From positions 1,764 through 65,763 of the forward strand of contig JAJTYZ010000112.1 in assembly GCA_021463515.1 (NCBI GenBank): DNA of 64,000 nucleotides. The letters are read 5' to 3'. The notes under the pieces were generated by a model, which did no database searches, was not told the origin of the DNA, and was given only the letters and a program-made list of their open reading frames with translations. Made by a program: the position numbers and the translations under genes. Each line of letters opens with the position of its first letter. Position 1 is the stretch's first letter. Positions 1,173 to 50,401 of this stretch are shown piece after piece. Origin of the DNA: Chthoniobacterales bacterium (GTDB lineage Bacteria > Verrucomicrobiota > Verrucomicrobiia > Chthoniobacterales > JACTMZ01).

Positions 1173-2102
1173 TTACCTAATCTCACCCTGCCATCCTTTT
1201 GGTTTAGCAGCGTGTCGGCCACTGATAAAAAACTTGCGAAATGTCACCCGCTTCACAGGTTGTCGTTTTTTCCAATAACTCGATGCTAATTTTAGGAAAT
1301 CCCAGACACCAAACAATCCGGAGTAAAACTCCTCTCCTCCCCCTTTCCATCCCCAACACACTTGGTTAATAGCTTTCCCTGGCAAATAATATAACACCTG
1401 CGGCATGGGGACACGCAGTAATGCAAAAATCAAATCATTCAATGTCCCGGAGCGATGCTGCTTTCCCCAATTCCGCCCACTCGTAGTTTTATCATGCCAA
1501 ACATGCACTCCGGGCAAAAATCGAACAACCCATCTATGATCCAAAAATCGCAGGCACAAATCCTTTTCTTCCGAACCATAATACCCAGGAAACTCCGCAT
1601 AATTTCCCACTTCTAAAGTATAACTTCGTCTCAAAACATGCCCACATCCCACATAACCCAAAGCATCCTTACCCACCTCACGTGCCACCTTCTTCGGGCG
1701 ATCCGGTGACAAAATATCAAATGCTACTCCCGCTACTTTGGTATCCTTCTCAAACTCACGCGCAGCCATCTCAATCTCATCTCCCCGCATAAACCAAGCA
1801 TCATCGTCCAAGCTACAAAACAAATCAAACCCCTCCATCTCCAACATCCGAGCCCGCGAATCAATCAACGACAACTCCTCTTCCGGCACAAAATGCCGAA
1901 TCCCCGGAAATCGTGCGATAATCTTCCCATTCTCCCTCCGCATCTCCTCTGTCCCGGAGTTATCCCACACCATCACATCAATCAATCCATAAGACTGCTC
2001 CAAACACGATTCCAAACACTTAGGCAAATATTCCGGTCTATCCTTCGTCACAATCCCCACACGCACCCGCAACTGCCCACTAATTTCCTCTTCTTTCAGC
2101 AT
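1173..2102 (-). CDS. Glycosyltransferase family 2
   Basis: VGIVTKDR...VWDNS, SLDDDAWF DxD motif, SEEKDL; start uncertain because the N-terminus overlaps a repeat arm. Confidence 0.85.
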   Translation of the reverse strand: MLKEEEISGQLRVRVGIVTKDRPEYLPKCLESCLEQSYGLIDVMVWDNSGTEEMRRENGKIIARFPGIRHFVPEEELSLIDSRARMLEMEGFDLFCSLDDDAWFMRGDEIEMAAREFEKDTKVAGVAFDILSPDRPKKVAREVGKDALGYVGCGHVLRRSYTLEVGNYAEFPGYYGSEEKDLCLRFLDHRWVVRFLPGVHVWHDKTTSGRNWGKQHRSGTLNDLIFALLRVPMPQVLYYLPGKAINQVCWGWKGGGEEFYSGLFGVWDFLKLASSYWKKRQPVKRVTFRKFFISGRHAAKPKGWQGEIR

Positions 2103-2135
2103 CTCAATCTCCCCCCCACTGACAACTGCCAACTT

Positions 2136-2687
2136 TCATACCTTCCCCCCAATTTCCCTCGCTGGAATCCCAGCAACTACGGTTTCGGCAGGCACATCTT
2201 TAGTCACCACGGCACCAGCTCCCACCACCGCGAATTTGCCAATACGAACATTCCGTAAAACTTTAACACCCGCGCCCAGCCAAACTCCATCTTCAATGAT
2301 CGTCTCCCCGAGTCTCATCGGTTGACTTTTCACATCTTTTCCTTCCACCGGCGTATGGTCCGAGTCCGTGATAAAACACATCGGTCCGATCATCACATTC
2401 GATCCTATCCAAAGTTTGTTGGATGCATCAAGAATCGTGTGGCGGTTAATATACGTGCCACAGCCGATCCGAATTTTATCCTTTTTGGGTAGCCCGCTCG
2501 CCAAAATTGTCACCCCACGATCAAGAGCACATCCCTTGAGTGTAATATCCGCCCAATGACGAGGAATTTCAATCTGGCGCATCCAACAATACTTTTCAAT
2601 ATTCACCCCTAATGCTCGGTAATAGAGATTGCGCCAGCGCGAAGCACTTCCCATACAGAGACGATGGAGGAGATGGATTGGATTCAT
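2136..2687 (-). CDS. Hexapeptide-repeat (LbH) O-acetyltransferase
   Basis: IEDGVWLGAGVKVL..IGKFAVVGAGAVVTKDVP..VAGIPAR. Confidence 0.9.
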   Translation of the reverse strand: MNPIHLLHRLCMGSASRWRNLYYRALGVNIEKYCWMRQIEIPRHWADITLKGCALDRGVTILASGLPKKDKIRIGCGTYINRHTILDASNKLWIGSNVMIGPMCFITDSDHTPVEGKDVKSQPMRLGETIIEDGVWLGAGVKVLRNVRIGKFAVVGAGAVVTKDVPAETVVAGIPAREIGGKV

Positions 2688-2691
2688 AACT

Positions 2692-3642
2692 TCAAAATGG
2701 CGGCAAAGACCGCCCTACCAAAATATCAAAGTATCCGAGAAGCGAACCTTTCAGAACTCGCCACTGTTTTGGATTGTGTAGGCTCCCAATCATTGTAGCG
2801 ATCATTTGAAATGCGCCCCAGATCATAAGCCAAACCCAATATCTAAATCCTTGAATTCCCTGCACGCGGCGCGCCACAAAATCTCTATTAACCACGCCCA
2901 TCCTCGCCACCCTTGCAAGATCAGATTTATGGCTTCCTGTTTGAGTATCATGAAAAATCCGTGCCGTTCGCGCATTGACCAATTTCCATTTTCTAGCCAC
3001 CACCAATGACAAAGCCACATCTTCCATCATCGAATATCCGGTGAACATTGGATCAAATGGAGGATCAGGCAAAGCCTCACGACGATACAGTGTAAGTCCC
3101 AAATTTAGCCACCCCACCGAAACCACGTCCGGCATTTCTTCACGATCTGCTGGAAGAAGATTCACCGCAGGCCCAAAAATCTTTCCCGCATAATCCGGTC
3201 CTAAGCCACCACCAATCAGCCGGTAAACAAGCCGCGAAACTCTGCCAGGTTCATGATATTTCTGATTCGTAATCATTGCGCTGGCACCACCGTTATCCGA
3301 AGCCAAGTGTAAAGCATTCCAAACGCGCTCCAAAGCATGTGCCTCCAGAACAACATCATCATCCGCAAAACCAATAACATTCTCACGCACCAGACCCACT
3401 CCTTGATTTCGCTGAGCCGCAGCACCCCGCTGCTTGGCTGGAATACATAGTACCCTCGCGAACAAATCAAACCGTTCCTGCATCACACGGCATACCTCTA
3501 CGGTTTGAGTGTCCGACGAAGCATCCACCACCATGATTTCGCGTGGCCACACACCTTGAATCAATACAGATTCCAACATCTGTTGCAAAACAGCAGAACG
3601 CCCCGAAGTCGGGATCACCAGACTAAGGGGCAACACCTTCAA
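2692..3642 (-). CDS. Glycosyltransferase family 2
   Basis: SLVIPT..VVDAS, AAQRNQG, FADDDV, MEDVALS. Confidence 0.9.
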   Translation of the reverse strand: MKVLPLSLVIPTSGRSAVLQQMLESVLIQGVWPREIMVVDASSDTQTVEVCRVMQERFDLFARVLCIPAKQRGAAAQRNQGVGLVRENVIGFADDDVVLEAHALERVWNALHLASDNGGASAMITNQKYHEPGRVSRLVYRLIGGGLGPDYAGKIFGPAVNLLPADREEMPDVVSVGWLNLGLTLYRREALPDPPFDPMFTGYSMMEDVALSLVVARKWKLVNARTARIFHDTQTGSHKSDLARVARMGVVNRDFVARRVQGIQGFRYWVWLMIWGAFQMIATMIGSLHNPKQWRVLKGSLLGYFDILVGRSLPPF

Positions 3643-4376
3643 GTTGTGACCTCCCTAAGCACCCGCCAAAATCCCTCCCGAATCTTCACCGGGTCAAAAT
3701 CGCGTCTCCCTGCCTCTACAGCCCGCTTCGCCAGCCCAACCCTCAACTCTCCATCTGTCTTCAATCTTTGTAAGCACGCCACCAATTCCTCACGCGTGGT
3801 GCACGAAACCACCCCATTGGGGTAAAAATTGAGAAATTCTAAAACGCTAAAACGTTGCAATAATCCAACCCTTTCAGCATTTCCATTTTTCAGCTTTTCA
3901 GTTTCTTCACCTTTCAGCTTTCCCTCCCCTGTCAACTGCCCACTGCCAACTGCCAACTCCTCTACCCCACGCCCATATCTCACTCCGGTAGCAAACTCCG
4001 GCCCCGACACCACCACGGGCATCCCCAGTCCCAAATACTCCGTTAACTTACTTGGAAAATGCGTACGGTAAAGCATCTCATTATCTCCAGCAGGATTTGA
4101 ATAAGGTAAAATCATCACATCCGCCCGTTCCTGCATCGTGCGCCACATTTCTAGGATATTCATACGATGCGGCATCCATTCCACAACATCCGTCGCCTCC
4201 AATAATCCCTTTAACTTATACGGCGGTCGCGGTGTCGAAGTCAAAACCTTAGCATTCACCTCCCGCAACACCGGAATCAACGCCATCAACGCTTCCCCAT
4301 ATCCATAAGCCACCGATCCTGCATATCCCAGCGTCAAAGTCCCCACCCCATTTCCAGTATTCTCCTCTTGCTTCAT
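3639..4376 (-). CDS. Glycosyltransferase (GT-B/GT4-like), C-terminal half, with an in-frame repeat insertion
   Basis: LGYAGS, ADVMILP, FPSKLTEYLGLGMPVV; same frame as 4452..5093. Confidence 0.75.
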   Translation of the reverse strand: MKQEENTGNGVGTLTLGYAGSVAYGYGEALMALIPVLREVNAKVLTSTPRPPYKLKGLLEATDVVEWMPHRMNILEMWRTMQERADVMILPYSNPAGDNEMLYRTHFPSKLTEYLGLGMPVVVSGPEFATGVRYGRGVEELAVGSGQLTGEGKLKGEETEKLKNGNAERVGLLQRFSVLEFLNFYPNGVVSCTTREELVACLQRLKTDGELRVGLAKRAVEAGRRDFDPVKIREGFWRVLREVTT

Positions 4377-4451
4377 TTCAAAATTTTAGTCTTTCAGCCT
4401 CTCTCTGCCAACTGACTACTGATTCCTGCCAACTCCTCTCCTTCCAGCATT

Positions 4452-5093
4452 TTAGCCTTTCATCATTGCAGCCCGAAGTACTCTCGACATTTCGGGCGAG
4501 CGTGGCTGCAAATCCTCACTCCGATTCGGATACATCACCTCACCCCTCACACTATACCGATTCGCTAGATAATCTTCCATTTCCGGGCTCACGCACAATC
4601 TCCTTGCTGCTGCTCGATATACCCTTCGGTTTTGTTCAAATAATCCCCGCTTCGCCCAAGAAAAAACTTTCTCAAATTCCTCGTTAAGATCGTGGACAAT
4701 CAATACAAGCGGTACACCTAATAATCGTGCTGTCCGTTCCGCCGTCAGAATCCATGGCGTGCTCACCATCACCGCAACAACAATCCTTGGTTTAAAACTT
4801 CCCAATAAACTCAAAATCCTTCGATGTGTTGGCAAAGGAATCAACCCTGTTGCCGCCCATGATCGCTTATACATGCTAAATCGGGTATTATCAAAGCGCG
4901 CCATCGGCATTTTTAACTCACAGTAAGAACACGGTAGCACCTTTGCCCCATGATCTGTAGGCGGTCCCATAACGCACAGCGAATCTATGGGATACTCCGA
5001 AAAAAGGTGATACAACAATATCGCGCCTGCGTTTCGCGTTTGAGGAACTTCACCAGAAAGAATGAGCACATACGGCTTAATCATTGTCGGCAT
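4452..5093 (-). CDS. Glycosyltransferase (GT4-like), N-terminal half of a split gene
   Basis: PLVLIVHD, LCVSPEMEDY..VMYPN typical of a GT4 N-domain; the nucleotide-binding domain is in 3639..4376. Confidence 0.75.
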   Translation of the reverse strand: MPTMIKPYVLILSGEVPQTRNAGAILLYHLFSEYPIDSLCVMGPPTDHGAKVLPCSYCELKMPMARFDNTRFSMYKRSWAATGLIPLPTHRRILSLLGSFKPRIVVAVMVSTPWILTAERTARLLGVPLVLIVHDLNEEFEKVFSWAKRGLFEQNRRVYRAAARRLCVSPEMEDYLANRYSVRGEVMYPNRSEDLQPRSPEMSRVLRAAMMKG

Positions 5094-5144
5094 AATTATC
5101 TCTCGACTGTTATACTTTTAAGAAAGTTATCTATTGAACTACCT

Positions 5145-6623
5145 CTACCTTAATTCAACGACAATACTATCATCATCATCCTTGATTCTACCATCACGAA
5201 CAATACTTACATTAATACTTTTCCTCAACACCTGTTCAAGCCTATATTTCAACCACCCAGCATTCTTCTCCTCATAAAAATCAACCTCTCCATTCGTGAG
5301 CTTTTTCCGAACTATAACGACAAGTGATAAAGCTTCTGGATTGCGTGCTAATTTAGCTAGCGCGAGATCAAATACGACTTGTTCCTCCTGAACATTGCGT
5401 GATGTGTGCCAAGCTTCACCCCTTGTAGAAATAATATTAAAAAGACAAAACAAAATAATTAAAATTGAATACAATATCGGACGATTCAAGTGCCGAATCA
5501 TCCACAAATAGGCAATAGCTACTATCCCTAATGTAATGCCCATGTCAGCACCATAATTAAGGCGAGTTTGCGTTGAAATCGCACCCTGTGCTATAAATGT
5601 CCCTCGAAATCCGGCAAATAATACATAAGAAAACAACAAAATCCAAAGTATTGAAATTTTCCTTATGCCCCCTTCAGCTTTATCACTTTTAAGAAGAATA
5701 GCTCCACCCGAAAGGGCAAAGATGCCGATCAGACCCCATATAGGAAGGGTGATAGAATCTATTCCTTGATTCAACAGATCCCTCCAAGGAATGAGCCACA
5801 ATGAATGCAGCCATCGTAGGTGAACGGAGATGAGTGCTATAAACTTCCTTTCTATCCCGCCCCCCGGTGTCCGAGCACCAGAATCTAAAGGATATGTTAC
5901 CAAATATGCTCCCACCCAAATCATATAAGGAAGCAACATCCATCCCGATAACTTTAAAGCCGCCCAAATTCCCGCGCGCCACTCTCCTCGTGTAATTTTA
6001 TCCTTGCTCTTTGAATGTAATAATGCGATGGCAAAAAAGACTATCCATGACGCTAAAGCCTGTTCATAAATTAAAAGTGAGGCAAAAACTAAAGTTTGAG
6101 CATAAATCAAATAACGTATATGACCTATTTGCATCCACTCTTGAAATGAAATTAAGGCTAATAAAAAGAAGGCCATAGATAAGCGTTGATGTACACAAAC
6201 CCACCAGACAACGGTCTGCGTATGCCAAGGGGCAGTCACAAAGAGAAGAGTTGCTCCCAACGCAACAGCAGCAGGAAATCGCATTCGATGGAGAAAAATT
6301 AATAGAAGAACACCATTTACAGCGTGCCCTAAAATACCCACACACATAGCACCAAATTCACCGAGTATCCACCCACCATACCCAATTATTATTAAAGAAA
6401 ATGGACGTGCTACTGAATAACTGCCAGCTCCACTTTTTCTAATAGATTCAGATAAACTCGGCCACGTACCACCCGGCTGCCCAAAAACAAACATATAATC
6501 ATCACTAAACCACCCACCACCATAAAGGAGTGGACTATAACTTAAAATGGCAGCAAAGATGACCAAGAGAATTCCTGGCCACCTCTCCCTTATCCCCCAT
6601 AACTCAGAACACGCTACACTCAC
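5145..6623 (-). CDS. Polytopic membrane glycosyltransferase (GT-C/GtrII-like)
   Basis: N-terminal FSDDY loop, RPFS, many transmembrane segments, YEQ motif. Confidence 0.65.
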   Translation of the reverse strand: MSVACSELWGIRERWPGILLVIFAAILSYSPLLYGGGWFSDDYMFVFGQPGGTWPSLSESIRKSGAGSYSVARPFSLIIIGYGGWILGEFGAMCVGILGHAVNGVLLLIFLHRMRFPAAVALGATLLFVTAPWHTQTVVWWVCVHQRLSMAFFLLALISFQEWMQIGHIRYLIYAQTLVFASLLIYEQALASWIVFFAIALLHSKSKDKITRGEWRAGIWAALKLSGWMLLPYMIWVGAYLVTYPLDSGARTPGGGIERKFIALISVHLRWLHSLWLIPWRDLLNQGIDSITLPIWGLIGIFALSGGAILLKSDKAEGGIRKISILWILLFSYVLFAGFRGTFIAQGAISTQTRLNYGADMGITLGIVAIAYLWMIRHLNRPILYSILIILFCLFNIISTRGEAWHTSRNVQEEQVVFDLALAKLARNPEALSLVVIVRKKLTNGEVDFYEEKNAGWLKYRLEQVLRKSINVSIVRDGRIKDDDDSIVVELR

Positions 6624-7603
6624 AAATAGTTTTGAAAATGATGTTGATAAAATTTCATTATAGCACTAAGCCCACTTCGCAACGAAACTTTGGGAACCCA
6701 TTCCAAAACTTTAGTTGCCCTTTGAAAATCGGCATAGTAATCCCCGATATCAATTTGCATTCGATCGGCGGGATAAGGCTTCACCTCGAATGCTCCTCCC
6801 CCATGAGCCTGAATCAACAATGTCGCTAAATCCAACAAAGTCACAGGAGGAGGCCCCCCTATATTGAATATCTGACCATCAGCTAGTGGATTCTCAGCAG
6901 CTAATAGCAGCGCGTCAACTGCATCATCAACATAGGTAAAATCACGCAGTTGTGAGCCACCCCAAACTTCAAAAGGTTTTCCTTCAAGCAACAATCGAAT
7001 CCACACCCCAAGAAAGGTCTGCCGCGCATCCTTAATACGCATACCAGGTCCAATCGTATTAGTTAATCGCAGCACCGCAGCCTTTATCCCATATACATTA
7101 TTGTACAAAATATGGTAAAACTCACCGGCCATTTTATTGATTCCATTGACATCCACCGGCCGCAGTGGATGATTTTCGTCAACAGGCAGATAATCAGGTT
7201 TTCCATAAATCTGCCGTGTACTAGCAAATACCACCTTGATCGTTGGATTAAATTGGCGGCACGCCTCTAACATCGATAATTGCGCTCGCGCATTTATTTC
7301 TAGATCTGTATTCGGATCACTCATTGAATCCATATGACTCGTCTGACCAGCCAGATTAAATAGCACATCTTTCCCTTGGATTAAGTATTTCATGCTAAAC
7401 CGATCTCGAACATCCGAGATATTCACATGAACCCTTCTTGAAAAATCCGTGATGTTACACCAATTGCCTCCATATTCAGGAATGAGACTATCTACAATGG
7501 ACACATCAGCACCGAGATCAACAAGACGCCGTGCAAGGTTTGAGCCTATGAATCCTAGACCTCCGGTAATAAGCACTTTTCTTCCACTATAAAACTTGTT
7601 CAT
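6620..7603 (-). CDS. NAD-dependent epimerase/dehydratase
   Basis: ITGGLGFIGS, FASTRQIYG, NGINK, LRLTN. Confidence 0.9.
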   Translation of the reverse strand: MNKFYSGRKVLITGGLGFIGSNLARRLVDLGADVSIVDSLIPEYGGNWCNITDFSRRVHVNISDVRDRFSMKYLIQGKDVLFNLAGQTSHMDSMSDPNTDLEINARAQLSMLEACRQFNPTIKVVFASTRQIYGKPDYLPVDENHPLRPVDVNGINKMAGEFYHILYNNVYGIKAAVLRLTNTIGPGMRIKDARQTFLGVWIRLLLEGKPFEVWGGSQLRDFTYVDDAVDALLLAAENPLADGQIFNIGGPPPVTLLDLATLLIQAHGGGAFEVKPYPADRMQIDIGDYYADFQRATKVLEWVPKVSLRSGLSAIMKFYQHHFQNYL

Positions 7604-8706
7604 GGTTGATAAGCTTCCTGTAAAGCCTTTGCTACAAAGCTAACTTCGTCGTCCTCCATCTCTGGAAAACTGGGAATAGTAAACACTGTACGACAGCATT
7701 CTTCCGTAAGAGAAAGGTGAACATTCTTGAAGTGTTCCTTTAACACCCGTTGTTGATAATCTGGAACAGGAAAGTGTACATCACTCGCAACACCTCTATG
7801 TGCTAACTGTTGGATCACTTCTTTCCTTTTCGTACTTCGAAGCACATAGTGATGCACTATGAAATTATCATTACGTGAAAATGGCAAACGCGGTACAACA
7901 CTTGACAGAGCCTCATGATAAATACTAGCAATCTGACGACGCCGCTTATTCATAGAATCCAGATGATCGAGCTTCACATTGAGAACAGCAGCCTGCATTT
8001 CATCCATTCTACTGTTTGTTCCTCCTGGCATATTCACATAGTATTTATTTGCCCAGCCATATTGCCGTAACGAACGCAAACGTTGGGCGAAATCATCGTT
8101 ATGGCTTACAACAGCACCTGCATCCCCATAAGCTCCAAGATTTTTTGTGGGGTAAAAGCTAAAACACCCGGCAATCCCAAAACTACCTGTCATCCTCCCT
8201 TCCCACCGTGCGCCATGTGATTCAGCACAATCTTCAATCAGAGGAATTCCTGCTTCATTGCAAATTGTTGCTATACTGCCCATATCTGCAGCTTGCCCAT
8301 AAAGGTGAGTGGCAATAATTGCTCGCGTTCGAGAGGTTATTGCCTTCCTTAAAGCTTGAGGATTCATTGTCATTAACTCCGAATCAATTTCACAGTATAC
8401 AGGATGTAACTTAGCATTAAGGATGGCACATGTCGCATACATCCCCGCATTAGCTACTGTAATAACCTCTCCTCCACAGCAGTCCAATGCCCGTAATGCC
8501 AATTCGATAGCCTGAGTTCCATTAGCAACACCAACAACATGAGGCACACCAAGATACTTCGCAAAACGTTTTTCAAATTCTGTTACCTCTGGGCCAAGGA
8601 TAAAGTTCGCACGTGTATGAACAGTATGTAAGCGTGCGGCGACAGCATCCTTGAAGGATGCGACATGACGCGAAAAGTCTTGTAAGGGAATCTTCATTAA
8701 GATCAA
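7600..8706 (-). CDS. DegT/DnrJ/EryC1/StrS aminotransferase
   Basis: IEDCAESHG, FSFYPTKNLGAYGDAG, NSRMDEMQAA. Confidence 0.95.
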   Translation of the reverse strand: MILMKIPLQDFSRHVASFKDAVAARLHTVHTRANFILGPEVTEFEKRFAKYLGVPHVVGVANGTQAIELALRALDCCGGEVITVANAGMYATCAILNAKLHPVYCEIDSELMTMNPQALRKAITSRTRAIIATHLYGQAADMGSIATICNEAGIPLIEDCAESHGARWEGRMTGSFGIAGCFSFYPTKNLGAYGDAGAVVSHNDDFAQRLRSLRQYGWANKYYVNMPGGTNSRMDEMQAAVLNVKLDHLDSMNKRRRQIASIYHEALSSVVPRLPFSRNDNFIVHHYVLRSTKRKEVIQQLAHRGVASDVHFPVPDYQQRVLKEHFKNVHLSLTEECCRTVFTIPSFPEMEDDEVSFVAKALQEAYQP

Positions 8707-8719
8707 TTATTAACTCCAC

Positions 8720-9688
8720 TCAGTTGGGCTTGTGCTCCTGAATAGTACGCACCAGCGATTGAGGACGCCCCGCGAGTGTTAAATAGGTGCGCCCTAAGTA
8801 TTCACCAATCACTCCAAGCATTAACAGCTGTGCGCCGGAAAATACACTAATAGCAGCCATTAAAGAGGCCCACCCCTTTATAGGCTCTCCATATAGAAAT
8901 TTTTCACCTATAACTAAAATGACCAGCACAAATCCTAACGTACAAAGCCCCGTCCCCATCAAACTTGCTAATCGAAGAGGCATCACACTAAAATTAAAAA
9001 ACATATTCATCCACAATCGAACGAGTCGCCTTAATGTATATCCACTTTGACCTTCAACTCGTTTTGCATGCTCTACTTGCAAGCGATCAATACGATTGGT
9101 GGCTCCAAGAATCAACCCATCAATATATGGAAACGGCCCACGATAACTCGTAATACGCTCTACTAATTCTCTACGCATTCCCCGAAAACTACATAAGTAG
9201 AGGTCCTTCGGTTTATCAAGAAGATAAGTTGCTACAACATTGGTAAACCAACTCCCAAAATTGCGCAATGGATGATGCTTTTTCTCCGTAAACCAAGTGT
9301 ACACGACATCGCAATCATGACTTTTAAGATATTCGACAATTTTTAAGGCCTCAGAAACAGGATTTTGAAGATCATCATCAAGATTTACAATATACCGTCC
9401 TTTTGCCTGGCGAAACCCCTCTAAGACAGCAGCATGCTCGCCATAATTTTTAGCCATATCAATAAAAACGACAGGATAAGGTAATTTCGAAATTCTTTCC
9501 GTCACTCGCTGCCCCGTTCCATCGGAGCTGGCATCATTCACCAAAACTAATTCCCAGCCTCCTTCGATCGGCAAGTCTCGAAAGGCATCTAGTAACTTAT
9601 GTAAAAAGCTTCCTGTGTTATAAAGTGGCACAACAAAACTAACTAGGGGCATATCTGCTGAATGAATCATAATAATTTCTTCCATCAA
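8720..9688 (-). CDS. Polyprenol-phosphate glycosyltransferase (GT2, ArnC/GtrB-like)
   Basis: VNDASSDGT, NYGEHAA, LDDDLQNP, two C-terminal TMs, IGEYLGR..GRP. Confidence 0.9.
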   Translation of the reverse strand: MMEEIIMIHSADMPLVSFVVPLYNTGSFLHKLLDAFRDLPIEGGWELVLVNDASSDGTGQRVTERISKLPYPVVFIDMAKNYGEHAAVLEGFRQAKGRYIVNLDDDLQNPVSEALKIVEYLKSHDCDVVYTWFTEKKHHPLRNFGSWFTNVVATYLLDKPKDLYLCSFRGMRRELVERITSYRGPFPYIDGLILGATNRIDRLQVEHAKRVEGQSGYTLRRLVRLWMNMFFNFSVMPLRLASLMGTGLCTLGFVLVILVIGEKFLYGEPIKGWASLMAAISVFSGAQLLMLGVIGEYLGRTYLTLAGRPQSLVRTIQEHKPN

Positions 9689-10446
9689 GATGTAGCTCTT
9701 CTCTGAGCAATACTAAATACAGAGGTTCCTATAGGGCATTTTATGGCTTTACAAACTCGAGACTCCCAAGTTCCTACCCTAGTAAGGAATGCATTGGCCC
9801 AAACAGGAGGAGGCACAAGGTCTGATTTGGCCTCTATTAAAGACGTAAGCTTATGGCGCTTACTTATTTGCCTCCAAAATAAGATCGGTAAAAAAAGCCA
9901 TGCATTCCAACAAAACACATGATTGACAACGAATTCATGTCTTTGGTGTAAGTTCTTCACACCCTGGGGTGTATATCGTCTCGCACTATACACTGCCACA
10001 TCGTGTTGCCCACGCAAACAACGATAGGCAGGAAGATTCATAATCAATTTTCCATCGCGACGAAGTACACGGCAGAATTCTTTCATAGAGCGCTCTTGAT
10101 TGACTCCCTCGGAACAAAGGACATCGAGGGATACAATCACATCCAGAGACGCATCAGGAAGAGGTATCTCATCAACACTCGCTTGAAAAACGTCATGAAA
10201 TCCTCGCTCACGCGTATGCTCTAAAGCTAGAGGCGAAACATCAAAGCCGTTCAGTTTCCAAGAATCTTTCCTCTCACGCAGGACCGCTAATGTCCCACCA
10301 GTTCCGCATCCAGCATCAAGAAGATGTGCGATGGGGTTACTAACTGTCGCTCGAACAACTTCATTAGCTGTCATCTCTCGTAATACCTTATACCACCAAT
10401 ACCCATCCTCCACTGAACGCATCGTTTGATATTCTTGATCAAGCAT
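9685..10446 (-). CDS. Class I SAM-dependent methyltransferase
   Basis: EDGYWWY, LDAGCGTG, SLDVL, HDVAV..RRY. Confidence 0.9.
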   Translation of the reverse strand: MLDQEYQTMRSVEDGYWWYKVLREMTANEVVRATVSNPIAHLLDAGCGTGGTLAVLRERKDSWKLNGFDVSPLALEHTRERGFHDVFQASVDEIPLPDASLDVIVSLDVLCSEGVNQERSMKEFCRVLRRDGKLIMNLPAYRCLRGQHDVAVYSARRYTPQGVKNLHQRHEFVVNHVFCWNAWLFLPILFWRQISKRHKLTSLIEAKSDLVPPPVWANAFLTRVGTWESRVCKAIKCPIGTSVFSIAQRRATS

Positions 10447-10457
10447 AACAATTCATC

Positions 10458-11339
10458 TTAAACACTAGCCCCAAAAAGAGCTTTCTCAAAATCAGACTTA
10501 CCACTCGCAAAAAGAGCATTCCCCTCTATAAACGCTGCGCTTGTATCACTCTCCGTCAGCACCCTCATATCAGCCCCGAATGCTGTAAATTCACGATCTT
10601 TCATGAATGCCAACTTCTCAGCCCAGAAAGGCTCGGCTTCCATGAGAATAAAACTTGGACGTAAATTCTCAAAGTCAAAACCCTCTAACGCGGAAAGTTC
10701 AGAACCTTCAACATCCAATTTTACAACAGTTGGTGCTCCCGAACCAAATTCATGGACGACTTCGCGAAATACGACTGCTGGTATCCAATAATCTGGTTTC
10801 TCATGATCAAGCACTCCATGCGACCAAGCCGTCATCCCTTCCGCTAGTCCCCCATGGCACCAAGGAATTAAGCCCGCCTTATCACCAAGTGCCGCGTGAA
10901 CTAAATGGGCATCCGAGACCTGATTACGATTGATATTATCATGCAACTGCAAGAATGACGCAGGATTGGGCTCAAAACACAAAATCTTTAGTTCAGGGAT
11001 CGAAGACATAACACACGAGAATAGCCCATGGTGAGCACCTATATCTGCAAACCACCCCTTATGGTGCCTAAGAAGATCGCGGCAGAGGTTGATGGAATGT
11101 GGTTCGAAAGCTCCTTTCGTCAAAATATTCCATCCGATAAAATCGGATGGATCAGCACAAAACAATGTTCCACTTGATCCCTCACGATAGACCCATGCAT
11201 TTGATGGAAGGCGTCTGAAAAGAATCTTTAATATCCGTATTTTCGATGGATGCGCAGGGATTTTCCGAGCATAAATGGCCAAAGCTTTCACGAAAGGATG
11301 TAGAGGAACCCAGTGATATATCCTTGTAGTAGTTTTCAC
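10458..11339 (-). CDS. FkbM family methyltransferase
   Basis: DIGAHHG, FEPNP, KLDVEGSE. Confidence 0.9.
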   Translation of the reverse strand: MKTTTRIYHWVPLHPFVKALAIYARKIPAHPSKIRILKILFRRLPSNAWVYREGSSGTLFCADPSDFIGWNILTKGAFEPHSINLCRDLLRHHKGWFADIGAHHGLFSCVMSSIPELKILCFEPNPASFLQLHDNINRNQVSDAHLVHAALGDKAGLIPWCHGGLAEGMTAWSHGVLDHEKPDYWIPAVVFREVVHEFGSGAPTVVKLDVEGSELSALEGFDFENLRPSFILMEAEPFWAEKLAFMKDREFTAFGADMRVLTESDTSAAFIEGNALFASGKSDFEKALFGASV

Positions 11340-11400
11340 ATTTCCTCCTCTAAATAACTATGCCATCAGCATCTTTACGATTCCTGTAAGATGAATACCT

Positions 11401-12111
11401 TTAAAAGTTAACAAAAGGCACATTCCAATCTCTCGGCGGTTCACCTTTCTTTGTGAAGCCACACAATTGCCTTACACCTAGCAAGTTTCCCACTCTCTTC
11501 TTTAGTGACTTATGAGGATTTTCTAGCACACGATAGTCAATTTCATTTAGAATCTGGCCATAATTCGTGCGAATAAACTTTATCACCTTGCAGACATGCG
11601 GATCGCAACAATCGTCAAACAACATAATCCCACCAAGCCTCAAAACACGTAACGCATAGTAAAAATCTATGAAAGCATCTTCAAAAACGTGAGAGCCATC
11701 AATATAAATGATATCGAATTGCTCATTACTTCGACAAATCTCAGGAAGCACGAGAGAGGAATAATCCTCATGCAAAGTAAAATTCCCAGAAAACCCGCAA
11801 TCCGAAATGGCTCTTACAGCACTTCCCCCCCACCCTTTGCTTTGGAAAGGATCAATGGCACTATGATGGAAACCATCAACTGACACCTCCTTCAAAGTCG
11901 CCAGAAATGCAAGTGCCGATCCACCAAAGGCCAAACCAATCTCCAATGTTCTCGATGGACGCCCACGAAGGATTAATTCTCGTATAATCCGAATATTATT
12001 AAGCGTCGAAATGCCTCCAATCTGAACCACATTACCAGAGAGATCAAGAGATTTCCCGGACTCCATCATCTTCCGTAATTTCGGGCAAAAATCTAAATAT
12101 GTTGCATCCAT
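11401..12111 (-). CDS. Class I SAM-dependent methyltransferase (Methyltransf_24-like)
   Basis: LEIGLAFGGS, IYIDGSH, GGIMLFDD. Confidence 0.85.
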   Translation of the reverse strand: MDATYLDFCPKLRKMMESGKSLDLSGNVVQIGGISTLNNIRIIRELILRGRPSRTLEIGLAFGGSALAFLATLKEVSVDGFHHSAIDPFQSKGWGGSAVRAISDCGFSGNFTLHEDYSSLVLPEICRSNEQFDIIYIDGSHVFEDAFIDFYYALRVLRLGGIMLFDDCCDPHVCKVIKFIRTNYGQILNEIDYRVLENPHKSLKKRVGNLLGVRQLCGFTKKGEPPRDWNVPFVNF

Positions 12112-12157
12112 AATCTAACAAACCTGATGAAAAACGCCAAATAAAACCACTATTATC

Positions 12158-13291
12158 TCATCCACCGCCGGCCAACTCTAAAAATCTCCGCGCCATGGCG
12201 GCAGGTGAATAATTCGCAATCACCCAATCATGTCCCTCAACAGCCACCTTACCCAAAATTTCAGGCTCATCTTTAATACGTTCAAGAGTTTTCTTCGGTT
12301 GCGCCAAATCAACTCCAATATAGTGTTTCCAATTCTCCGGCATTACCGGAAGATCAACTCCATACATCTCTAAATCCAGATTGATCACCACACACCCGGC
12401 CACCCAAGCCTCCCACGCTCGAAAACTATCCCACTGAATAGACCGCCGAGGTCGCAGATCAAACTTAGCTATAAAATCAAAAAAATGCCGTTTCAATTTT
12501 GCCTTATTCCCTCCCACCATATAGCTTTGCGGATTCCACGGCATCGGCGGAATAAGTTCACCACAAAAGCAAGCAACGGCTTGGCTACTCTTTAGGCGAT
12601 TGTAATAGTTTTGCGAAAACCTCATCCCCGTCTGTTCCCACATAAGCCGCTCATAAGGATTAGAAGGTTCTTTCTTGAGATCATCTTTCGTCGTATCGAA
12701 TGGGATTATCTTTTCTAATTGCGGCAAAAATTTCTTCTCGGCTTCAATTCGCGCTCCATGCCCATAGGGATGCGAGGCTCCAAAGTTCACCGACACAACA
12801 CGCCGCCGCTCGGCAAACGACAACGCTCCTGACGTAGCTTGCACAATACGGTTGGTGAACCCTAAAACCCACGGACGCATGTTTTCCGGATGCCACGCAC
12901 GGCGGTTCAACTTAGAACGCAAAATCAGATCAAACTTCCGGTATTCAGGTTCCCAAGATTCTGTCCAATACCCATCATGGTTGTCCATACACACCGTCAC
13001 ATACCTCCTTCCTTTCTTAAATAAGCCTTCCGGCAAAGGGCGCTTTAGAACCTCAAAACTCCCTGGACGCATAAAAACCGACCACGTGTAACTAACCACC
13101 ACAACATCGCAATCATCCGGGCTTACATCGGGGTCATGTTTTATTAAGAAATCGTCAGACACTGCAGACTGACGCCAATAATTACAGCTTCCATAAAATG
13201 GCACGCCGAGTTTTTTTAATCCTTCCGCCAGAGTAACTACATCCTCCTGCAGATTGAAAGGCTCATCACGACAATAGAAGTAAACCCGCAT
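12158..13291 (-). CDS. Putative glycosyltransferase / conserved glycan-locus protein
   Basis: C-terminus SFRAWEAWVAGC..ENWKHYI..YSPAAMARRF resembles a GT-B C-domain; ATG 13291 chosen because the upstream extension is repeat-derived. Confidence 0.55.
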   Translation of the reverse strand: MRVYFYCRDEPFNLQEDVVTLAEGLKKLGVPFYGSCNYWRQSAVSDDFLIKHDPDVSPDDCDVVVVSYTWSVFMRPGSFEVLKRPLPEGLFKKGRRYVTVCMDNHDGYWTESWEPEYRKFDLILRSKLNRRAWHPENMRPWVLGFTNRIVQATSGALSFAERRRVVSVNFGASHPYGHGARIEAEKKFLPQLEKIIPFDTTKDDLKKEPSNPYERLMWEQTGMRFSQNYYNRLKSSQAVACFCGELIPPMPWNPQSYMVGGNKAKLKRHFFDFIAKFDLRPRRSIQWDSFRAWEAWVAGCVVINLDLEMYGVDLPVMPENWKHYIGVDLAQPKKTLERIKDEPEILGKVAVEGHDWVIANYSPAAMARRFLELAGGG

Positions 13292-13331
13292 TTCGTTTTT
13301 AGCTTTCTTGTCCTCTCCTGCCGACGGCCAA

Positions 13332-14390
13332 CTACCTACTGTCAACTTCCCTGCTCAGTTTTTCGGCCTTTTCTCCCAGTGCTGCAGCATAAGCTCCTAA
13401 GTCATGCTGACCGGCTCTAATCTCCCTTACAGCTTTCCACATGCCGCGCCTTCGTGACATTGTCATCTCCCATTCCAAACGCCTCAGTCGCCCCCTTCGC
13501 ATAAAGGACATAATCCAGAATCGCCAATCGTTGCGCGGATGCAAGATGCGCCCATTCTCAACAAATCCATGCAATACAGTTGAATAGGCATTGGCCTCCG
13601 CATTTTTCAGCAAATATTCATCAGAGCAACGACCCACAGGGATCAAATGATCCATCAACAACTTCTTAAATACACCCTTTCCATACCCTGATTGACACCC
13701 CACATAAGATAAGTCGGAATCTCCTCCGAAGCCAGCACTTTTTGGAGTCGGATCTAGCAGCCGACGCATCGGATTATCCAAAACACGTTGTCGGTAAAGT
13801 TTTAAGGTCTCCCTCCGTGCACATAGTCCTGCTCCCCATGGGGTGGAATCATGATGCTCAATCACATTGGACCAAATATCCTGTGTTAATTCACGCGCAC
13901 ACAAAGCACCCCGCAGCCAGGTATCAGGTGCCTTATCCGGCTCATCAAACTTTAGTAAAATTTGCCCACCCCAAGTTCCTAGGTGAGGGAAATCCCTAGA
14001 AATTTTGACAACCTCCTCAAGATAATCCGCCCGCAAAGCATTATCCTGATCCACAAAAACAAAGACATCTCCCTTCCCCAACTCAAACCCATACAGTCTG
14101 GAACTCACCAACCCAATCCCCTCCCGCTTCCGGTCCGTCTGCACAAGCCGCGCATTGGGATGCCATCCCAAATCCACAACCACCCTCCCTTCCTCCTCCC
14201 TCACCAACTCATCCCCTGCCCACTGCCCACTGCCAACTGTCAACTTCTTCCTCGACGCATCATCAATAACGATCAGCTCCCATTGATCCTTAGGCAGCGT
14301 CTGACTCATAAGTGCCTCCAGCACAATCCCCAAATGCCGCACTCCAGGATTGCAGCAGGGCATGATAACGGAAATGAAGTTGGCAGACAT
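13332..14390 (-). CDS. Glycosyltransferase family 2 with a short repeat-derived insertion
   Basis: ISVIMPCCNP, IDDAS, FVDQDN, GAGLC, GDSDL. Confidence 0.9.
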   Translation of the reverse strand: MSANFISVIMPCCNPGVRHLGIVLEALMSQTLPKDQWELIVIDDASRKKLTVGSGQWAGDELVREEEGRVVVDLGWHPNARLVQTDRKREGIGLVSSRLYGFELGKGDVFVFVDQDNALRADYLEEVVKISRDFPHLGTWGGQILLKFDEPDKAPDTWLRGALCARELTQDIWSNVIEHHDSTPWGAGLCARRETLKLYRQRVLDNPMRRLLDPTPKSAGFGGDSDLSYVGCQSGYGKGVFKKLLMDHLIPVGRCSDEYLLKNAEANAYSTVLHGFVENGRILHPRNDWRFWIMSFMRRGRLRRLEWEMTMSRRRGMWKAVREIRAGQHDLGAYAAALGEKAEKLSREVDSR

Positions 14391-14407
14391 CAGTAGTCAG
14401 TTGGCAG

Positions 14408-14758
14408 TTATTGCTTCAGTGAGCGTATCAAACCTTGGATCATGGCCGAAAGCTCACGACTATCGCTGATCCAGCGATCAGCAATAGAGTTTTCTAGCAA
14501 ACCGGCTTTTACACCCACAGTTGCTTGTGTCCGAAATTCCCCACATGAACCTCGAGCGTAATCAAGAAACTTCAAGCGATCGGGCAGCGATCTCCGCTCC
14601 ATACCTTCAGCAATATTCGAGGGAATAGAAAGTGCCGAACGTGTTATCTGATCACGAAACCCGAAATCTACACACTTCGCAAGCTTTCTGTAAACGTTAG
14701 CACTCAGCTCTACGGAACGCTTCCAATCCTCCAAATCTTCAAAACCCGCCATATACAA
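14408..14758 (-). CDS. Four helix bundle protein (23S rRNA-IVP / Avd-like family)
   Basis: FEDLEDWKRS..DFGFRDQITRSALSIPSNIAEG..FLDYARGSCGE. Confidence 0.9.
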   Translation of the reverse strand: MYMAGFEDLEDWKRSVELSANVYRKLAKCVDFGFRDQITRSALSIPSNIAEGMERRSLPDRLKFLDYARGSCGEFRTQATVGVKAGLLENSIADRWISDSRELSAMIQGLIRSLKQ

Positions 14759-14790
14759 ATTTCCCCTAGTGACTGTCTGCTGCCCGCTGA

Positions 14791-15708
14791 TTACTGCCTA
14801 CTGCCCAAAATTTCCCTGAAATTTTGGGCATATTCCGCAAGACACACCTTCCAATCCCGCATATAATTAATCCCTCTCCACTCCAACTTCATATTAACCA
14901 GCTTCTCAGAATACGGACGCGGCGCAAAGTACTCCTCCTTCCAATAATCGGAACCCACTTCCGTCACTTTCACATCATCCTCCAGCCCTAGAAGTCTCAC
15001 AAATTCCTTGGCAACATCTAAGCGGCTACAGCTTCCTCCACACACCTGATTATAGAGTCCGTAATGCCCCGTTTCCAAAACTCTAAACATCCCATTGGCA
15101 AAGTCTTTGGTATAAGTCGGCGTCCCCAACTTATCCGCCACCACAAAAAGTTCCTTCGCTCCTCCCTGAATTTGCTTAAAAATTTTATTAACAAACTTCT
15201 TGTCCTTTTTCGGGCCGCCCCCCATCATCCATCCCGCACGAAAAATAAAATACTTGCTCATTTTCCGTTCTACAAAGCACTCTCCATAATATTTCGACTT
15301 GGCATAATGACTCGTTGGCAGAGGCATATCGAAATCTGCATAGAACTCCTGCTCGCCGCCAAAAATTCCGGCGGTACTCACATAAACCATGGTTATCCCG
15401 CGAGATTCCGCCAGCAATGCTGTATTCTCCGGCCCCAGCGCATTCGTCGCCCACGAATCCTCCGGATTTTGCTCGCAATATTCCAAATCCGTCAAAGCCC
15501 CCAAATGAAAAACTACCGTGGGCGCAAACTCATCAAACAGCTTCTTCAACGAGAATAAATCTCGAAAGTCCTGATAAACCAACCAAGGTTCATTCACATC
15601 AATATCCGTCGCCAATACATGTTCATATCTTTGCGTTGCCACCTCAAAAACAGCGGCCCCCAACATCCCCCCAGCCCCCAACAACAATACTTTATCCTGT
15701 GTATTCAT
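14791..15708 (-). CDS. rfbD: dTDP-4-dehydrorhamnose reductase-like SDR
   Basis: GAGGMLG, YAKSK, GTPTYTKD, APRP. Confidence 0.75.
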   Translation of the reverse strand: MNTQDKVLLLGAGGMLGAAVFEVATQRYEHVLATDIDVNEPWLVYQDFRDLFSLKKLFDEFAPTVVFHLGALTDLEYCEQNPEDSWATNALGPENTALLAESRGITMVYVSTAGIFGGEQEFYADFDMPLPTSHYAKSKYYGECFVERKMSKYFIFRAGWMMGGGPKKDKKFVNKIFKQIQGGAKELFVVADKLGTPTYTKDFANGMFRVLETGHYGLYNQVCGGSCSRLDVAKEFVRLLGLEDDVKVTEVGSDYWKEEYFAPRPYSEKLVNMKLEWRGINYMRDWKVCLAEYAQNFREILGSRQ

Positions 15709-15794
15709 ATCTTTTATAAATTAAATTCTTCCCATTTTCAACATTTAAGATTTTCAGTATTTTAGCTTTTTCTCCACTCCCTCCTACCAACTGC

Positions 15795-16349
15795 CTACTG
15801 ACTCCTGCCAACTATCCCTTCCCCCAAACTCCCTCCCCTCCCATCCTTTTCCGAAACAACCGGCTCTCCTTTAAGTGGCCACTGAATGCCTAATGATTTA
15901 TCGTTCCAGAGAATGCAACATTCGTAAGATGGCGAATAAAACTCCGTAGTTTTATAGGCAACATCGGCAAACTCAGAGAGCACATAAAATCCATGCGCAA
16001 AACCTTCCGGAATCCACAACATCTCTTGCGCCTCATCAGTTAATACCTCACCCACCCACTTTCCATAGGTCGCAGATTCAGGACGAATATCCACAGCGAC
16101 ATCGAAAATCTTCCCCCGCATCACCGTGATCAGTTTTGCCTGAGCCTTGGGTTCCACTTGATAATGCAATCCCCGCAAAACATTCCTTTTCGAACGCGAA
16201 TGATTATCCTGCACAAACTCTACCTGACGATTCAATACTTCATTTAACTTCAAGCGATTCCAAGATTCCAAAAAGAACCCTCGCTCATCACGAAAAATTT
16301 TCGGCTTAAGCAACATCACACCATCTAGCTTCGTTTGAATTACTTCCAT
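15795..16349 (-). CDS. rfbC: dTDP-4-dehydrorhamnose 3,5-epimerase
   Basis: DERGFFLES, FVQDNHSRS, LRGLHYQ, GFAHGF. Confidence 0.95.
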   Translation of the reverse strand: MEVIQTKLDGVMLLKPKIFRDERGFFLESWNRLKLNEVLNRQVEFVQDNHSRSKRNVLRGLHYQVEPKAQAKLITVMRGKIFDVAVDIRPESATYGKWVGEVLTDEAQEMLWIPEGFAHGFYVLSEFADVAYKTTEFYSPSYECCILWNDKSLGIQWPLKGEPVVSEKDGRGGSLGEGIVGRSQ

Positions 16350-16409
16350 ATTACAAATAGGCCACGAGTGATACTAATTTCTCTGATAAGTATAGAAGGT
16401 CATTCTCCT

Positions 16410-16985
16410 TTAATTTCGTCTTTGCATTACTCGTGCAGGAATTCCCGCCACGATTTCATGGGGTGACACATCCTTCGTCACGACAGCACCTGCAGCCACC
16501 ACCGCTCCATTACCAATCGTCACCCCCCCCAACACCACAACATTTGCTCCAATCCAAACATCGCGCCCAATTTTAGTCGGCAACAAAACATCCGGTGTTT
16601 CACGAATCAGTTCCCCGGCAGACGGAATCCCATGATTGGACGAGAGAATTGTCGCTTTCATCGAAATCAAGGAATGTTCCCCAATCTCTACCCCGCCATG
16701 ACCATAAATCGTGACATAAGGCCCCAAATATACATTGCTATTCAAGTTTATACTTCCATCAAACGCCCACAAGACGACACCCCGCTCCACCCATACGCTA
16801 TCACCCAGAAGAATCCGGCCTTTCGCATTGTAATTTTTAAGACAATTCTTGAATCCCTTCCCCAAATTAAAATCCACATCTGGTGCCAATCGAACGCCGC
16901 GCCCCAACTTTACTCCTCGCACCCTTGCAAGCCACCGCCTCTTTAACAAAAGCAATTTATAGAATTGGTTCAACAACGTATCCAT
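16410..16985 (-). CDS. Hexapeptide-repeat O-acetyltransferase
   Basis: IGRDVWIGANVVVLGGVTIGNGAVVAAGAVVTKDV. Confidence 0.9.
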   Translation of the reverse strand: MDTLLNQFYKLLLLKRRWLARVRGVKLGRGVRLAPDVDFNLGKGFKNCLKNYNAKGRILLGDSVWVERGVVLWAFDGSINLNSNVYLGPYVTIYGHGGVEIGEHSLISMKATILSSNHGIPSAGELIRETPDVLLPTKIGRDVWIGANVVVLGGVTIGNGAVVAAGAVVTKDVSPHEIVAGIPARVMQRRN

Positions 16986-17030
16986 ACCTATACTTTTGCA
17001 GATTTTCGCTCGCGATCAGTTTCTACTGCC

Positions 17031-43523: not shown

Positions 43524-43694
43524 GGGTACCGCGCCCACCTCGGGTGCCGTTTCCCGCGCCCTCGCGGGAAACATCGAAAAAATTAACAAGTCACTGAAAA
43601 AAATCTTAGTTTGCAGGAGTTCGTATTTCCATCACAGGCGAACCGGAGCCGAAGGCGGAGATGGCTCTTAGGCAACCGCCTGTGCCCCCTGATT
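43524..43694. repeat. Composite REP-like element between convergent genes
   Basis: Family A copy 43524..43574 with perfect gtttcccgcg/cgcgggaaac stem; family B copy 43631..43694 with an enlarged loop. Confidence 0.75.
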
Positions 43695-50332: not shown

Positions 50333-50401
50333 TCAGGGGGCATGGGCGTCTCGCCCGTGTGCGTTTTTAAATCACAGGCGAGACGCCTGTGCTCCCTGAT
50401 T
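50333..50401. repeat. Inverted pair of family B REP-like palindromes between convergent genes (may act as terminator)
   Basis: tcagggggcatgggcgtctcgcccgtg ... cacaggcgagacgcctgtgctccctga. Confidence 0.8.

Follow-up and report, generated by a model that had tools for sequence, protein, structure and literature searches.

Background

Cyanobacterial short tandemly repeated repetitive sequences (STRR) are short tandem heptamers of many unit types per genome; they are mostly intergenic, sometimes lie in genes, and have been described without a linked gene. Alg13/Alg14 is a GT-B enzyme with its N- and C-domains on two polypeptides. Here we describe a 141-nt in-frame repeat insert in a glycosyltransferase gene of a Chthoniobacterales bacterium (NCBI GenBank assembly GCA_021463515.1, contig JAJTYZ010000112.1, positions 1,764 to 65,763 of the forward strand). 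This stretch of 64,000 nt is called the window below, and positions are counted from its first letter. The insert is probably an exonised, gene-less and decaying arm remnant of cassettes of the intervening sequence (IVS) type that carry an IVP gene; it is most likely translated, giving the protein an additional loop.

Two further systems are close to this locus. According to the account in PMC4990558, the helix-45 IVS of Coxiella burnetii 23S rRNA has terminal inverted repeats that pair into a stem of 28 bp, which RNase III cleaves, and two to three tandem GACAGAT heptamers, in a copy number that varies among strains, precede its S23p open reading frame (ORF). Rickettsia palindromic elements (RPEs), as outlined in PMC10969869, are intragenic MITEs (miniature transposable elements with inverted repeats): palindromic repeats of 100-150 nt that lie in frame in unrelated metabolic genes. 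The family PF05635 is regarded as Avd-like in PMC10053308.

The parent cassettes proposed here, seen in this lineage and in other phyla, consist of small 23S_rRNA_IVP (S23p, Avd-like four-helix-bundle) genes between inverted arrays of 7- or 8-nt units that pair into a closing stem. Like the Coxiella IVS in the account given above, they have a 23S_rRNA_IVP gene, stem-closing terminal inverted repeats and tandem heptamers beside the ORF, and both are regarded as selfish and decaying. Unlike it, they lie in protein-coding operons, and the insert itself has no ORF and sits inside a coding sequence, in frame and most likely translated. Excision by RNase III is known for the IVS. The insert resembles the RPEs, as far as these are outlined above, in being palindromic and in frame (47 codons, no stops) and in adding a peptide that the fold tolerates; RPEs are, however, multicopy with a conserved full-length sequence and peptide, whereas what recurs here are short modules, and even close relatives have different sequences. 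Short tandem heptamers are shared with STRR, and cyanobacterial IVP genes were found to be flanked by inverted short-period arrays as well, but the arrays described here are arms of gene cassettes in Verrucomicrobiota and include octamers. As in Alg13/Alg14, the GT-B N- and C-domains of the host enzyme are on separate polypeptides. Its fission is nevertheless recent and apparently caused by a linker repeat element, and it varies among close relatives, in which the gene is fused, split, or split and holding an additional gene.

Results and discussion

The insert and its host enzyme

The insert occupies 3825..3965 on the minus strand and comprises 141 nt, or 47 codons, with limits taken from an alignment to the protein of the same-genus genome G037 and to distant homologs. 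A sequence-only reading of this DNA had proposed a stop-free insertion of about 140 nt and 47 residues in a glycosyltransferase C-domain. The alignment confirms this and sets the boundaries at 3825-3965; the segment is lacking from G037 (locus L164) and from four distant full-length homologs. The repeat words that had been named are likewise all present on the minus (mRNA) strand, where Tandem Repeats Finder (TRF) reports three arrays.

Along the mRNA the modules follow in the order GTAGAGGAG, four heptamers, a purine spacer, six octamers of the GCTGAAAR type, a 14-nt loop and about four inverted octamers. The heptamer module (TTGGCAG TTGGCAG TGGGCAG TTGACAG, 3929..3958 on the minus strand; TRF period 7, 4.3 copies, given on the plus strand as CTGCCAA) is a solo arm, its inverted partner being absent within the insert. 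The 5' octamer arm (GCTGAAAG GTGAAGAA ACTGAAAA GCTGAAAA ATGGAAAT GCTGAAAG, 3872..3921, minus strand; TRF period 8, 6.2 copies) is translated as KLKGEETEKLKNGNAER. The 3' inverted octamer arm (CGTTTTAG CGTTTTAG AATTTCTC AATTTT, 3826..3857, minus strand) is found by TRF at 3839-3854 (period 8, 2 copies) and in the minimum-free-energy hairpin. It is a decayed reverse complement of the octamers, pairs with the 5' arm and is translated as QRFSVLEFLNF; its counterpart in relatives reads FQxFSxSEFL. The peptide of the whole insert runs VEELAV...LEFLNF and has also been delimited as VEELAVGSGQLTGEGK...LEFLNF. The frame in use has no stop, against five and four in the other two sense frames. Repeat units are imperfect, never with more than two identical ones in succession.

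The host of the insert is an ORF of 245 aa (3639..4376, minus strand), referred to as the C-half. Its match to Pfam Glyco_trans_1_4 is weak (0.0044, below the cut-off) and ends at residue 125, just ahead of the insert. Sequence searches of the PDB gave no useful homolog; the fold search succeeded instead, and an AlphaFold2 model of the C-half (mean predicted local distance difference test score, pLDDT, 86.7) retrieved BshA, GlgM, WaaG and PimA with Foldseek at E-values of 2e-5 to 1e-4. In this model the GT-B C-domain retains high confidence, whereas the insert, which loops out between helix 130-136 and strand 189-192, scores low (pLDDT below 50 at 140-153 and 55-66 at 150-170); the last turn of the insert (SVLEFLNF) is modelled more confidently. 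The N-half is a second ORF of 213 aa in the same frame (4452..5093, minus strand; Pfam Glyco_transf_4, 7.3e-11). Judged by Pfam and the predicted fold, the host is a GT4-like GT-B glycosyltransferase with an N-terminal Glyco_transf_4 and a C-terminal Rossmann domain of the Glycos_transf_1 type. Unsplit relatives of 396-424 aa exist.

The two halves are separated by 75 nt plus a TAA stop, and reading through meets three in-frame stops. Together with the weak Pfam score of the C-half, these stops could mean that the gene is dead, a glycosyltransferase pseudogene in which both inserts are accumulated junk. We consider this very unlikely. Read through, the halves are 65% identical (263/402) to the intact 424-aa protein of G037 without a frameshift, and the invariant motifs GYAGS..YGYGE and HFPSKLTEY are retained. 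Moreover, 16 close relatives likewise have C-half-only ORFs, and the insert itself is open. A DNA contig (X16) spans 3600-5100 with two substitutions and no indel, although its run is near-identical, is maybe the source sample and hence is not independent; by our reading of the alignments, both substitutions shift the protein towards the G037 residues or residues like them. Because this contig spans the insert and the split without an indel, an assembly artefact is disfavoured for both. In 17 DNA runs, 0.96 or more of the words sampled from 3600-5100 are present; activated-sludge runs contain this DNA.

A related element at the interdomain linker

A sister element lies between the halves (4377..4454, minus strand, delimited by sequence and by alignment to G037). 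We call this position site 1 and that of the insert site 2. The site-1 element holds the stops TAA, TAG and TAA in frame, is built of GAGGAG-TTGGCAG heptamers and GCTGAAAG / ACTAAAAT / TTTGAAAT octamers, and ends at the ATG of the C-half. Compared to G037 it adds about 41 codons. It has GAGGAGTTGGCAG and GCTGAAAG in common with the insert at site 2, and 4405-4434 is 93% complementary (28/30 nt) to the arm 14378-14407 of an IVP cassette in the window. A kinship of the two sites at the protein level was considered and dropped: common peptide 4-mers are no more frequent within than between the four full-length homologs compared.

The element also holds a promoter-like sequence, TTGGCA-17-TAAAAT (4411-4383, minus strand; 10/12), made of one heptamer and one octamer unit and lying 7 nt before the C-half ATG. 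Four promoter-like sites were found in 3500-5300 against 2.5 expected, and the one at 4411-4383 is a consensus match, at most a lead; a terminator scan of the same region found none. Going by its sequence, the site-1 element may supply a promoter and a start codon to the C-half.

Links to IVP cassettes

Two cassettes with an IVP gene lie in the window, both on the minus strand. The first (14372..14812) is located between an rmlD-like and a GT2 gene; its IVP gene (14408-14758; Pfam 23S_rRNA_IVP, 2e-27) is flanked by arms of inverted NNNNCAG heptamers at 14769-14805 and 14378-14407, and its RNA folds with paired ends (z = -2.07). The second (29415..29900) has an IVP gene at about 29521-29784 with one TAG inside. 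Its arms consist of GGTTCTT x6 (29420-29462) and AAGAACC x8.7 (29838-29897), and its RNA forms a long closing stem (z = -6.69; 0/100 shuffles as good). A further IVP gene of the same genome (C77:73777-74094) lies between AGTTGAG and CAACTCT arrays.

The insert is tied to such cassettes through its modules. The 5' octamer arm has a 22-nt exact match to L041:449-470, which is the 5' arm of the IVP cassette in the related loci L041/L042. The heptamer module belongs to the NNNNCAG array family and shares 18 exact nt with 14222-14239, inside a second in-frame insert in the GT2 gene (see below). A 23S_rRNA_IVP/S23p ORF is absent from the 141 nt, where a 14-nt loop is all that lies between the arms. 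At this module level the earlier proposal of a gene-less version of an element that folds back holds up, further supported by the 28/30 match of the site-1 element and by the ends-paired folds of the gene-bearing cassettes in the window. The insert has arms of short tandem repeats in common with these cassettes, and it lies in a protein-coding ORF rather than in 23S rRNA; it probably derives from an IVS-type cassette but is not one itself.

Outside the window the association of IVP genes with inverted arrays is frequent. IVP genes are present in 26/31 related genomes. With flanks of 220 nt, 21/30 of the relatives' IVP loci have a flanking inverted repeat score of at least 30, against 0/23 controls with flanks displaced by about 500 nt; several of the loci are close kin, so that the counts are not independent. 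The best period is 7 on both sides at 19/30 loci and 8 at L139. A set of three cyanobacteria, a Cyanobacteriota metagenome-assembled genome and Pedobacter gives 8/15 IVP loci that pass, against 0/13 controls. No description of IVP genes between inverted heptamer arrays outside rRNA was found in the available portions of the literature on IVP/S23p.

At the same rmlD/GT2 junction, G037 (L166, G037:C18, reverse ~1060-1500) carries a different, stop-truncated IVP gene that is 42% identical (35/83) and has different arms. Its neighbours are 83% (rmlD-like, 252/302) and 68% (GT2) identical to those in the window. A divergent IVP gene between conserved neighbours fits replacement of the cassette at a fixed site, or very fast evolution.

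We propose that cassette arms landed in a permissive surface loop of the C-domain, 6 residues long in insert-less homologs. They would have arrived by cassette insertion or recombination, followed by loss of the gene (for example by hairpin-mediated deletion) and local shuffling of the arrays. The insert would be translated as a mostly disordered loop of 47 residues that has no catalytic role, with selection doing no more than keeping the frame open. The sister element at the linker, with its three stops and its end at an ATG, would have made the enzyme two polypeptides, which probably still cooperate.

Several observations weigh against this derivation. When the 2.11-Mb assembly (65.65% complete) was searched with exact words, no second full-length copy of the 141 nt emerged; all that recurs elsewhere are modules of 13-18 nt. 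No target-site duplication was found when filled sites were compared with the empty sites of L001/L164, no associated transposase was found (the sole linked gene is IVP), and no pair of empty and filled sites was found at strain level. The insert is no classical multicopy MITE, and its sequence does not establish that it is mobile. The heptamer family is nearly restricted to one 14-kb gene cluster, which agrees with mobility and equally with local recombination or slippage. That the insert is translated and that the split enzyme is active are both points that we infer. At their 3' ends the insert classes resemble one another (xEFLxx / FDILKx / SEILDR), and the model shows a helix of fair confidence there, so that part of the insert may by now be a structural piece of the protein. 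Finally, the present copy has a significant sense-strand fold (z = -3.39, see below), which a decaying arm remnant leaves to chance or to a recent origin.

Empty, filled and cargo-bearing sites in relatives

The alignment of homologs contains 26 rows out of 86 matches. At site 2, GP.FATG[VL] and PNG lie 6 residues apart in two distant full-length homologs (two more are insert-less in the alignment), 11 in P0030, 53 in the window and 24-87 in 20 close relatives. The unsplit protein of G037 lacks about 42 of the window's codons at this site. L001, like G037, encodes an unsplit protein of 424 aa. Site 1 comprises 18 residues in these two and in the distant homologs, while site 2 comprises 11 in these two and 6 in the distant homologs.

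Filled sites differ in content. At least three unrelated classes of site-2 insert are found in close relatives (AEKLK...FQxFSxSEFL, EARGE...NFERDHFDILK and IEDGRSEMG...SEILDR). The DNA of the L039 insert is a foldback of GCTGAAAA x5, and L041/L042 have other heptamers at site 2. In L041/L042, site 1 is filled by 613 nt that contain a 23S_rRNA_IVP gene (Pfam 3.4e-9), with GCTGAAAA octamers on the 5' side and TTTCAGCT octamers on the 3' side. In L039 the motifs flanking site 1 are 174 nt apart and in the same frame, about 126 nt above L001. Judging from these comparisons, sites 1 and 2 are permissive hot spots of the glycosyltransferase.

C-half-only ORFs are found in 17 of the 22 close forms, the window counted. 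Most of them begin with MSAFP or MST immediately ahead of LTLGY; in L041 these first C-half codons and the ATG lie within the inverted octamer arm. The L041 cassette shows a further peculiarity at L041:340-520: the N-terminal codons of its IVP gene (MRISPELR...) occur twice, in a direct repeat some 26 nt long that surrounds an octamer array. By its sequence it looks as if an octamer element was inserted into the IVP gene itself.

Two freshwater-type metagenome contigs, L040 (330-1439) and L103, carry a 1379-nt insert at site 1 with an Acyl_transf_3 gene (369 aa, 4.8e-25). On this sequence comparison, the acyltransferase is a new gene inserted at the fission point between the N- and C-halves.

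Inserts change quickly compared to the protein around them. Between P0001 and P0002 the core is identical at 168/186 positions and the insert at 31/47, with 22 gapped columns that are all in frame; the insert thus evolves about three times faster than the remaining protein while the frame is kept. P0002 and P0003 differ by duplications of whole heptamer-plus-octamer modules.

Such duplications might be expected from a home-grown microsatellite, expanded by slipped-strand replication in a tolerant loop, whose 7- and 8-nt units may act as a switch for the phase variation of a surface-polysaccharide glycosyltransferase. Genes for surface sugars are typical contingency loci, the units are in tandem with periods of 7 and 8, and the empty site 1 of L001 already contains GCTGAAAG once. 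We nonetheless consider this origin improbable. With imperfect units, of which at most two identical ones follow each other, slippage is expected to be slow. The same stretches of 18-30 nt occur at separate loci and in the cassette arm of another organism, and relatives have an IVP gene at the same site. Nor is there a change of length in the spanning contig X16 (which possibly comes from the source sample), and the 17 DNA runs contain at least 0.96 of the sampled words. The repeats thus do not behave as phase-variable contingency repeats, given their imperfect units and the one spanning contig without an indel, although this comparison concerns contigs and rare variants could remain.

Folding of the insert

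The insert and its nearest flanks (3815-3975) fold on the sense (mRNA) strand at -44.1 kcal/mol, with z = -3.39 and only 1/200 dinucleotide shuffles as good. The complementary strand reaches z = -0.89 (39/200 shuffles as good). The sense strand of the insert thus beats shuffles of matched composition, which the sequence-only reading had named as a check. The predicted fold has 48 pairs, of which 7 are G-U. Its stems are short and interrupted (inner stem 12 + 4 bp, outer stem about 15 bp), and the outermost GGG/CCC pairs are the host codons Gly136 and Pro185, which are also found in homologs and were not brought by the insert. For a closing stem the signs are mixed: the octamer arms pair and the whole insert is significant, but the heptamer arm is unpartnered, the outer pairs belong to the host and related inserts are non-significant.

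The comparison with those other copies is given by their z values. The site-2 insert of L039 has z = -1.32 in sense and -0.29 in antisense direction, and that of L040 has -1.56 and -1.47. Site 1 of the window has -0.67, the GT2 insert 0.26, two intergenic spacer copies -0.39 and 0.55, and site 1 of L039 +1.94. Among the site-1, site-2, GT2-insert and spacer copies compared, the site-2 element of the window is the sole one with a significant fold.

These results bear on the possibility that the insert acts at the RNA level, the mRNA foldback being an RNase III site or a switch of translation or stability that tunes or cuts the message, with selection for its G-U pairs. The difference between the strands and the G-U share (7/48 pairs) speak for it, as does the construction of the parent cassettes, which follows the Coxiella 23S IVS whose stem is cut by RNase III in the account of PMC4990558. 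In addition, nearly all operon arrays have one orientation relative to transcription, and by our reading of the arm sequences a G-rich arm lies 5' of the gene in most IVP cassettes. We still regard such a function as unlikely. Related site-2 foldbacks are no better than shuffles, with equal strands in L040, and the site-1, GT2-insert and spacer copies lie between -0.67 and +0.55. The stems are short and interrupted with host codons as outer G-C pairs, and Rfam gives no match: a scan of 2000-17000 at E up to 1 returned two chance matches resembling small nucleolar RNAs, both outside the elements. The earlier suggestion that the G-U pairs favour RNA-level function is thus not borne out, since related site-2 inserts fold like shuffles and the other copies lie at about z = 0. 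It is further weakened by the frame, conserved among relatives despite the quick divergence of the insert, and by the want of a full second copy in the 65.65%-complete assembly.

An open and conserved frame points to ribosomes that read through the insert, as it is needed only then. Similarly, an insert that diverges fast while staying in frame has the pattern of a translated and weakly constrained loop, unlike a structured RNA that is removed before translation. Contigs of RNA-labelled runs cover 3600-3774 (X18), 4168-4318 (X20) and 4443-4593 (X19, probably DNA); neither insert is crossed by them, and no joints are listed.

Related repeat copies in the window and the genome

The second in-frame heptamer insert (14193..14240, minus strand; TTGACAG/TTGGCAG/TGGGCAG) is located in the GT2 gene 13332-14390, 10 kb from the glycosyltransferase insert, and was delimited by alignment to the G037 ortholog. 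Neither this 68%-identical ortholog nor five homologs in the same order have its 16 codons, or 18 with two nearby. Copies with heptamers followed by octamers are also found between genes on the minus strand: at 15740..15850, after rmlC and before the start codon of the rmlD-like gene (fold z = -0.39), and at 13290..13350, in the intergenic or gene-end region after the GT2 gene (z = 0.55).

These two copies and the site-1 element (4377-4454) have the same order of modules on the minus strand: NNNNCAG heptamers, a purine spacer and A/T-rich octamers (GCTAAAAT-like), each time directly before a start codon and on the sense strand. From its recurrence in three places, this module order might act as an intercistronic leader.

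Genome-wide there are 14 arrays with at least three CAG words at period 7, of which 6 lie within the present 14-kb gene cluster. A strict regular expression for octamer arrays returned two loci in the genome, the pattern being too rigid. Candidate exonised arrays of period 7 or 8, in open frames of 338-557 aa, were seen at C19:23956-23985, C38:20407-20426, C65:2143-2185, C79:12520-12600, C88:13431-13489 and C119:11756-11783.

Two other repeat pairs in the window are unrelated to the heptamer elements: a 51-nt direct repeat at 35679-35729 / 43524-43574 (90% identity) and a 51-nt inverted repeat at 35744-35794 / 50370-50420 (80% identity), with a spacing of 8-15 kb.

Conclusions

A wider proposal can be formulated that goes well beyond the derivation of the insert from cassette arms; with all its parts taken jointly we consider it speculative and rather unlikely to be correct. 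The insert would then be one visible trace of gene-remodelling IVP cassettes with hairpin arms, a class that would span phyla and is apparently undescribed. A pentameric Avd-like IVP protein would recognise the arrays in the arms, at roughly one unit of 7 nt for each subunit, and would act on single-stranded nucleic acid or on RNA. Homing would bring the cassettes repeatedly to the same permissive sites, where remnants would be exapted as new loops, new start codons and perhaps promoters. In this manner genes would be split, and new ones, of which the acyltransferase of L040 is an example, placed between the halves of an enzyme.

What the present case contributes is an in-frame, octamer-armed copy that we infer to be translated, sequence links at the level of modules, and the fission of a GT-B enzyme, apparently driven by the element and with cargo that varies. 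If the derivation from IVP cassettes is true, in-frame 'low-complexity' segments in enzymes of this lineage would be left over from a cassette family that can be defined and is akin to rRNA intervening sequences, and would not be random linkers. The relatives would then provide a natural series for the birth of loops and the splitting of genes, from empty sites through a fused gene with insert and a split gene to split genes with an IVP or an acyltransferase gene. For annotation, such elements should be checked for before these genes are labelled as pseudogenes or as two unrelated ORFs. The long-unexplained IVP/S23p family would, if true, gain a concrete candidate for its nucleic-acid partner.

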